A stretch of DNA of 64,000 nt. It comes from a virus. The notes beneath the pieces were generated by a model. That model had not been told where the DNA came from. It saw nothing but the letters and a program-made list of their open reading frames with translations, and did not search any database. Made by a program: the position numbers and the translations under genes. How positions within the stretch are numbered: position 1 is the stretch's first letter; every line of letters starts with the position of its first letter. Where the stretch lies: positions 22,915 to 86,914 of the IMG/VR virus record IMGVR_UViG_3300029258_004290; one strand, written 5' to 3'. This document shows positions 53,948 to 54,030 of the stretch, in pieces.

Positions 53948-53953
53948 TATAAT
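53948..53953 (+). promoter_or_regulatory. sigma70-type -10 box (TATAAT)
   Basis: Perfect TATAAT in an intergenic gap of a GC-rich genome; -35 poor. Confidence 0.65.
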
Positions 53954-53958
53954 AGTAC

Positions 53959-54022
53959 GGAGAGCCGGCAAGCGGGGCCGGCGGGAGTTTCGTCGTTCCC
54001 TCAACCGGCCCCGCGGCTCTCC
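53959..54022 (+). ncRNA. candidate antisense small RNA / structured leader
   Basis: Stems GGAGAGCC/GGCTCTCC and GCGGGGCCGG/CCGGCCCCGC enclosing TCGTCGTTCCCTC (53990-54002), the reverse complement of the repeated GAGGGAACGACGA. Confidence 0.65.
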
Positions 54023-54030
54023 TCCCTTCT

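Follow-up and report, generated by a model that had tools for sequence, protein, structure and literature searches.

A predicted leader hairpin in an uncultured phage genome carries the exact complement of a tag found at five translation starts

We analysed a 64,000-nt stretch of phage DNA (hereafter the window), which comprises bases 22915-86914 of the 86,914-bp IMG/VR virus record IMGVR_UViG_3300029258_004290; positions below are those of the window unless stated otherwise. Between a promoter-like box and the first gene of the replication module lies a three-tier hairpin, the apex of which holds the exact reverse complement of GAGGGAACGACGA, a 13-nt sequence containing a Shine-Dalgarno (SD) element that recurs at five ATG codons in a downstream gene cluster. 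We refer to the repeated sequence as the start tag and to its inverted copy as the anti-tag. We propose that the hairpin forms the leader of a + strand mRNA and that its apex pairs with the five tagged starts and represses their translation, a reading to which we give a probability of about 0.5. For this phage, the case is a well-founded hypothesis drawn from one genome rather than a demonstrated system.

The start tag occurs exactly, on the + strand, at the five places listed in Table 1. Each copy ends in the A of an ATG and continues with TG, giving a common 15-mer, GAGGGAACGACGATG. An exhaustive search of the 86,914-bp genome returned these five forward copies and the one inverted copy on which an earlier annotation, made from the letters alone (the sequence-only reading), had built its case, and none besides. 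The expected number of inverted copies in the genome is 0.0004 from base composition and 0.0012 from a first-order Markov model, which bears out the earlier claim of complementarity beyond chance. No other non-coding 12-mer in the whole genome is repeated in a tag-like fashion. The match between anti-tag and tags stops sharply at the tag borders, and the flanks are dissimilar.

All forward copies fall within the gene cluster that follows a second TATAAT box (P_c), between the helicase and recombinase genes. The sequence-only reading had the 13-mer spanning the SD through the A of ATG at five starts; this is correct for all five as ATG codons, with the qualification that four are starts picked independently by the source gene caller (P0002-P0005), while the fifth (60089) is an internal, in-frame codon. 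This second tag lies 31 codons into its open reading frame (ORF), an arrangement that predicts long and short forms of the protein under the same control. Between tag copies 1 and 2 there is also a degenerate tag-like stretch, GAAGGGAACGAACGAAG, at ~60025-60041.

The register relative to the ATG and the spacer are identical in 5/5 tags, and about 65 other start regions of the genome use varied SDs and spacers. The tag marks the independently initiated (non-overlapping, uncoupled) starts of the P_c cluster; the gene at 61625, which overlaps its predecessor's stop, carries no tag. A fixed register with the ATG and a conserved spacer suggest that selection acts on the RNA or on translation. The tagged proteins are mutually unrelated orphans, and searches of Pfam, PHROGs and the ESM Atlas yielded no usable clue to their function.

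The hairpin has an 8-bp outer stem (GGAGAGCC, 53959-66, with GGCTCTCC, 54015-22), a 10-bp middle stem (GCGGGGCCGG, 53972-81, with CCGGCCCCGC, 54005-14) and an apex made of the inner stem GGGAG/UUCCC and the loop UUUCGUCG. The anti-tag spans 6 loop nucleotides, the 5-nt weak inner stem and 2 bulge nucleotides. RNAfold returned exactly the structure described by the sequence-only reading, at -44.9 kcal/mol (z = -4.3); 0/200 dinucleotide shuffles were as stable, and the hairpin ranks about 14th by folding among all 70-nt windows of the genome. The earlier coordinates and sequences of the TATAAT box, the stems, the inner stem, the loop and the 13-mer all hold, except that the gap between TATAAT and hairpin is 5 nt and not 6. 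The YUNR motif in the loop, which had been offered as evidence, is uninformative, since simple arithmetic gives it a chance of ~1 in 4 in an 8-nt loop.

The hairpin follows a sigma-70-like promoter, P_b. Its TGGGCA-18-TATAAT arrangement was the top promoter-like site in 20 kb by a consensus scan. TATAAT occurs three times in the 86.9-kb genome (genome position 15509; window positions 53948 and 59940), every time on the + strand and in an intergenic region, against an expectation of 0.33 per strand. We infer from this that P_b and P_c are real host-type promoters, and the count suggests that there are just three such promoters for a genome transcribed wholly one way. The P_b transcript is predicted to begin at ~53959-53961, which is the foot of the hairpin. 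Because all recognisable genes are on the + strand, it is the anti-tag, and not the tag, that would be carried in the RNA. The replication-module promoter claimed earlier is supported by a credible sigma-70-type -10 box, 5 nt before the coding-strand hairpin.

We considered whether the inverted copy might serve a minus-strand gene and rejected this, there being no ATG, GTG or TTG at a proper distance. The only minus-strand ORF at this place starts from TTG 54004 and runs for 142 aa, antisense across the 3′ end of the endolysin gene.

The sequence-only reading had described a discrete short RNA. The hairpin lacks a run of U after it (tail UCCUCCCUUCUAUG) and was not picked out as a terminator by the consensus scan; the host may be one that uses U-less terminators. 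The ATG of the winged-helix gene at 54031 sits 8 nt past the stem, behind the tail UCCUCCCUUCU and without an SD. Because there is no U-tract terminator and the next ATG is 8 nt away, we read the hairpin as a leader and not as a discrete RNA: from its position it most likely forms the 5′ leader of the mRNA for the replication operon, from which it may be processed, and this is simpler than a free small RNA (sRNA). The 8-nt tail UCCCUUCU, together with the final stem bases (..CUCC), is pyrimidine-rich and anti-SD-like (54023-54033). The SD-less start at 54031 contrasts with nearly all other genes of the phage, which have a clear SD.

The energetics of pairing are feasible. In the folding ensemble, the anti-tag bases in the loop are unpaired with a probability of 0.87-1.0 and the two bulge bases with a probability of 0.98. 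Opening the five inner-stem bases costs 6.9 kcal/mol and opening the tags on their mRNAs costs 1.9-5.3 kcal/mol, to be set against -23.8 kcal/mol for the 13-bp duplex of anti-tag and tag; the net gain after opening costs is -12 to -15 kcal/mol. The tags are cheap to open and so accessible unaided; therefore, pairing would block rather than activate.

We propose the following mechanism. The hairpin would be the first 64 nt of the + strand mRNA from P_b, which would run on into the replication genes, and it might be freed later via processing or partial termination. The sequence UUUCGUCG at the apex would act as a single-stranded seed from which, if pairing takes place in the cell, an uninterrupted 13-bp duplex with GAGGGAACGACGA on the P_c mRNAs would grow. 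This duplex would mask the SD, the spacer and the A of the AUG at five start sites, which serve four proteins, one of them with two starts. Ribosome loading would then be blocked and the tagged proteins turned down together, with a timing that is conjectural. What stands of the antisense interpretation put forward earlier is thus the pairing logic, the apical display and the feasible energetics; its short RNA, its early genes and its role as a switch or in immunity find no support. The terms "early genes" and "early-to-middle switch or immunity" were guesses, given that the tagged genes encode orphan proteins and that P_b and P_c do not differ in type.

We looked for relatives of the locus. 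A megablast search of 53000-56000 against 50,697 phage records gave no match. In a set of 5.8 billion protein clusters, the winged-helix protein and each of the four tagged proteins form singletons. Loci anchored on the helicase, from IMG/VR and metagenomes, were at most 39% identical and none had a repeated start motif. Within IMG/VR, the tag 15-mer is found in 94 contigs and the anti-tag 15-mer in 18, in single copies at chance level, with no second copy at up to 1 mismatch. Among public sequencing runs, the stretch was found in four DNA runs, from three studies, and in no RNA run; the four copies show zero differences, and therefore offer no microdiversity to use, and these runs may be the source data.

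Several results weigh against repression by the leader. No relative with the tag and hairpin system was found in these searches, which leaves the hairpin without support from covariation or conservation. The minus strand of the hairpin folds equally well, at -46.3 kcal/mol; since both strands fold alike, we rejected folding energy as a guide to the strand, which is therefore taken from gene orientation and the promoter only. The lack of a U-rich terminator after the hairpin gives no indication of a discrete sRNA. As P_b and P_c seem to belong to one promoter class, a simple temporal switch is not evident. Finally, in a genome-wide scan by energy only with the whole apex, in which stem bases were allowed to pair, unrelated GC-rich coding sites score like the five tags. 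We dropped such target prediction as uninformative, being non-specific in a genome of 69% GC; therefore, it is the exact, unbroken match at the start sites that carries the case, and not the energies.

Table 1 Features of the hairpin locus and the tagged gene cluster (window coordinates).
Feature	Position	Strand	Remarks
Endolysin gene	53208-53843	+	Domains GH108 and PG_binding_3
GC-rich hairpin 3′ of the endolysin stop	53877-53911	+	From the sequence and fold of 53877-53946; weak U tail
Promoter P_b, sigma-70-like	53924-53953	+	TGGGCA, 18-nt spacer, TATAAT (53948-53953); 10/12 consensus matches
Three-tier hairpin, candidate regulatory RNA element	53959-54022	+	Extreme 5′ end of the predicted P_b transcript
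Anti-tag UCGUCGUUCCCUC	53990-54002	+	Exact reverse complement of the start tag; TCGTCGTTCCCTC as DNA
Winged-helix helix-turn-helix (HTH) gene, first of the replication module	54031-54735	+	Weak GntR/IclR/TrmB/MarR HTH matches
Promoter P_c TATAAT	59940-59945	+	38 nt 5′ of the first tag copy
Tag copy 1	59984-59998	+	Start of ORF 59996-60685, 229 aa, orphan, P0003
Tag copy 2	60077-60091	+	In-frame internal ATG 60089 of ORF 59996-60685; would give a 198-aa short form
Tag copy 3	60703-60717	+	Start of ORF 60715-61623, 302 aa, orphan, P0002
Tag copy 4	61904-61918	+	Start of ORF 61916-62320, 134 aa, orphan, P0004
Tag copy 5	62333-62347	+	Start of ORF 62345-62962, 205 aa, orphan, P0005

The record that contains the window carries a 144-bp terminal repeat. 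Upstream of the hairpin is a long structural and lysis block, which includes terminase, portal and baseplate genes and ends in the endolysin gene. The GC-rich hairpin that follows the endolysin stop is likely the weak-tailed terminator of this long operon. The winged-helix gene, for which the source gene caller also chose the start at 54031 (P0001), is followed in the replication module by genes for a DnaC-like loader, a primase and a helicase. Then come the second TATAAT of the window and the tagged gene cluster and, past the end and start of the record, genes for a UvsX-like recombinase, an SbcCD-like nuclease, DNA polymerase I, a QueE-like protein and an exonuclease. A search for tRNA and tmRNA genes found none, and no integrase, repressor, antirepressor or immunity genes were recognised in the annotated parts of the genome.

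Two further elements lie within the winged-helix gene. A perfect 14+1+14 palindrome, GCCAGGGAGGTGGG-A-CCCACCTCCCTGGC, occupies 54067-54095 at the 5′ end of the gene (codons 13-22) and is unique in the genome. Its half-site has no further copies, and the genome therefore shows no set of operators for the HTH protein; the palindrome could be an operator, an origin element, or a second strong RNA hairpin that flanks the SD-less start at 54031. The AT content of the region peaks at 54262-54300, where ATCTTACA occurs twice (54270-77 and 54283-90), 13 bp apart and followed by ATCTTCTAC, in an iteron-like arrangement. This repeat may be a replication origin within an initiator-like gene, comparable to that in lambda O.

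We weighed three other explanations of the hairpin against repression by the leader. The one that survives best, which we regard as unlikely, holds that the hairpin is a structural element, such as a 5′ mRNA stabiliser, a back-up terminator for the late and lysis genes or part of an origin, and that the mirrored tag is a by-product, for example the remnant of an inverted, duplicated gene-start segment. The predicted transcript begins with the hairpin, and stable 5′-terminal stem-loops protect mRNAs. It also lies 116 nt past the endolysin stop, behind the weak-tailed first hairpin, and there is further DNA symmetry nearby in the palindrome and the AT-rich repeat, the fold itself being strand-symmetric. 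However, no such role predicts an exact 13-nt match to the tag, given the expectation of 0.0004-0.0012 copies. The sharp borders of the match, without flanking similarity, disfavour a recent segmental duplication, and the same arrangement recurs in the Cluster K1 phages described below.

The second explanation, to which we also give little credence, is that a sequence-specific protein, for instance the product of the neighbouring winged-helix gene, binds the 13-mer as double-stranded DNA. The inverted copy, which lies at about +37 to +49 relative to P_b, would then serve in autoregulation or as a roadblock, and the five forward copies would be roadblocks that follow stoperator logic. Six identical copies fit a protein site, the winged-helix gene adjoins the inverted copy, and this copy would be explained without an RNA. 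Asymmetric 13-bp sites scattered in a phage genome are moreover known for L5-type repressors (PMC3203893). Against this, the five forward copies all share an exact ATG register and contain the SD, which a roadblock has no need of, and five roadblocks within a single 3-kb operon would be superfluous. The inverted copy lies clear of both the -35 and the -10 box, and a protein site leaves unexplained why this copy falls precisely in the apex of a 64-nt hairpin. The third and least probable, that pairing is real and the regulation reversed or mutual, with the tagged P_c mRNAs titrating or remodelling the replication leader (its stability or the SD-less start at 54031) or the apex acting as an anti-SD-mimic decoy for ribosomes or a tag-binding factor, draws on the SD-less first replication gene that starts 8 nt past the hairpin behind a pyrimidine tail and on a stoichiometry of five targets to one anti-tag that favours titration of the leader, but apex pairing leaves the 18 lower, G-C-rich pairs intact and access to ATG 54031 barely altered, and nothing points to a tag-binding factor.

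We compared the hairpin with known RNA families and regulatory systems. Rfam gave no family at gathering score for the 64-kb window, in agreement with the sequence-only reading, which did not recognise the element as a described family; at E <= 10, a search of 53800-54150 yielded only chance hairpins of microRNA type and no C4. The hairpin does not match the covariance model of the C4 family (RF01695), while it does show the loop complementarity to same-strand ribosome-binding sites (RBSs). The complementarity covers 13/13 positions at five RBS/start sites, with 6-8 nt unpaired in the apex, and is a functional resemblance to C4 only. The c4 RNA of P1/P7 pairs via loop sequences with sites around the RBS and so blocks expression (PMC12197685). 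The window hairpin resembles it as a structured phage RNA with a same-strand target, encoded in an operon leader rather than opposite its target. The CI RNA of P4 is related to c4 and is cut from the leader of the replication (alpha) operon. Unlike the window hairpin, which would address five starts in another operon, c4 and CI each have only one or two sites of action, in their own operon, and serve immunity in temperate elements.

Two further comparisons concern repeated sites and shared seeds. The stoperators of Cluster A mycobacteriophages, which are the sites of the L5 repressor gp71, are 13 bp long and asymmetric and have been contrasted with start-associated sequences (SAS) (PMC3203893). 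They share with the tags the many identical, asymmetric 13-bp sites in or near short intergenic spaces; in contrast to the tags, they are protein-bound DNA sites that act on transcription and are not locked to the start codon. Bacterial sRNAs of the GcvB, RyhB and Spot 42 type silence unrelated mRNAs with one exposed seed that covers their RBSs. Their seeds match loosely similar, independently evolved sites, whereas here the site is an identical, private 15-mer, and the window hairpin lacks an Hfq-type 3′ end (hairpin and U-run).

The closest parallel is with the SAS of Cluster K phages. These are 13-nt asymmetric motifs with an SD that precede, by 3-9 bp, the starts (mostly ATG) of non-structural genes from unrelated families (PMC3203893). 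SAS-tagged genes are found only in the non-structural right half of the genome, among the early right-arm genes (PMC3203893). Anaya, Adephagia, Angelica and CrimD have one SAS each in the opposite orientation, which is not at a gene start and was left unexplained (PMC3203893). Whether an RNA or a protein reads the SAS was left open (PMC3203893), and their role was still unknown in 2024-2025 (PMC11373665, PMC12699233).

We located the inverted SAS in Anaya (record L136, 34871-34883, minus strand, 1 mismatch) and in Adephagia (record L148, 1683-1695). It lies in the gap between genes 92 and 93 of Adephagia, which equals the gap between genes 96 and 97 of Anaya. On the coding strand, the K1 copy reads GGCCUCCUAUCCC, and ten of its bases make up a 10-nt hairpin loop, CCUCCUAUCC, on a two-tier stem (inner GCGCGG/CCGCGC, outer GGCGUYGACC/GGUYGRCGUC). 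The z-score of the fold is -4.7 in Adephagia and -2.1 in Anaya. The hairpin is kept in 11 diverse members of the cluster, with two doubly compensated pairs and several one-sided changes. Late transcription of Adephagia is reported to initiate in the gene 92-93 gap (PMC11373665). Thus, K1 phages carry the mirror of the early-gene tag in a hairpin loop of the probable late-operon leader, with the same architecture as the window hairpin.

The K1 hairpin is part of a non-coding block, ~300 bp long, that Cluster K genomes carry close to their right end (L136 34730-35020; L148 1540-1860), which is conserved in 138 records. Besides the anti-SAS hairpin, the block holds an invariant TTTTAGACT box and the conserved hairpins GCACAGCTGTGC and GGCCCCGG...GGGGCC. 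Some records annotate a hypothetical protein across it, and the indels in the alignment are not in threes. In Adephagia, tandem repeats of the CGCCGACGCCCGC type (L148 1500-1545) lie between the gene 92 terminator and the conserved block.

The two systems are alike in that a motif of about 13 nt, including the SD, lies by the ATG starts of unrelated, non-structural genes and is found in one orientation bar a single inverted copy, which in K1 as in the window is set in a coding-strand hairpin loop of an operon-leader region. They differ in sequence, the SAS consensus GGGATAGGAGCCC being unrelated to GAGGGAACGACGA, and in number, with 11-19 copies there and 5 here. The window tag has a fixed spacer and extends into the start codon, whereas the SAS lie 3-9 bp upstream, and the Cluster K anti-tag is in a late-operon gap while that of the window heads the replication operon. 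The hosts also differ, the window phage being uncultured and having an endolysin of the GH108 type, and this phage lacks ESAS-type inverted repeats. The window tags thus share the motif and the orientation and rarity pattern of SAS and show neither homology with the Cluster K sequences nor relatedness to these phages; they are an analogue of SAS, not a member.

We advance, as a tentative generalisation with rather less than an even chance of being right, that SAS-type start tags private to a phage and one anti-tag hairpin within an operon leader together make up a general phage device, so far undescribed, in which the transcribed leader would pair with all tagged starts and shut the gene set off at translation. 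The inverted SAS of K1 would then be an anti-tag, and the window hairpin an independent invention in an unrelated phage. The parallel with Cluster K has its limits. In the Amginevirus phages Hammy, Ekdilam and Amgine, a standard SAS is present at ~15 starts and the loops amount to no more than a degenerate anti-SAS, pyrimidine-rich and anti-SD-like; covariation of loop and SAS was not seen within Cluster K, Hammy having a standard SAS and a degenerate loop. The loops of Keshu and SirPhilip are unrelated, and TM4 and Pixie carry SAS without an inverted copy (PMC3203893). Since some Cluster K phages have SAS without an anti-tag, the anti-tag is therefore an optional partner of the tag.

The temporal programmes of phages are usually ascribed to promoters, sigma factors, repressors and antiterminators. 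If the proposal is true, one leader hairpin that addresses a gene set via a private RBS tag would provide a cheap, RNA-only layer of control, and the start-associated sequences, open since 2011, would gain a concrete and testable function. The Cluster K parallel can be tested in Adephagia and Anaya, which are cultured and tractable on M. smegmatis and for which RNA-seq exists.

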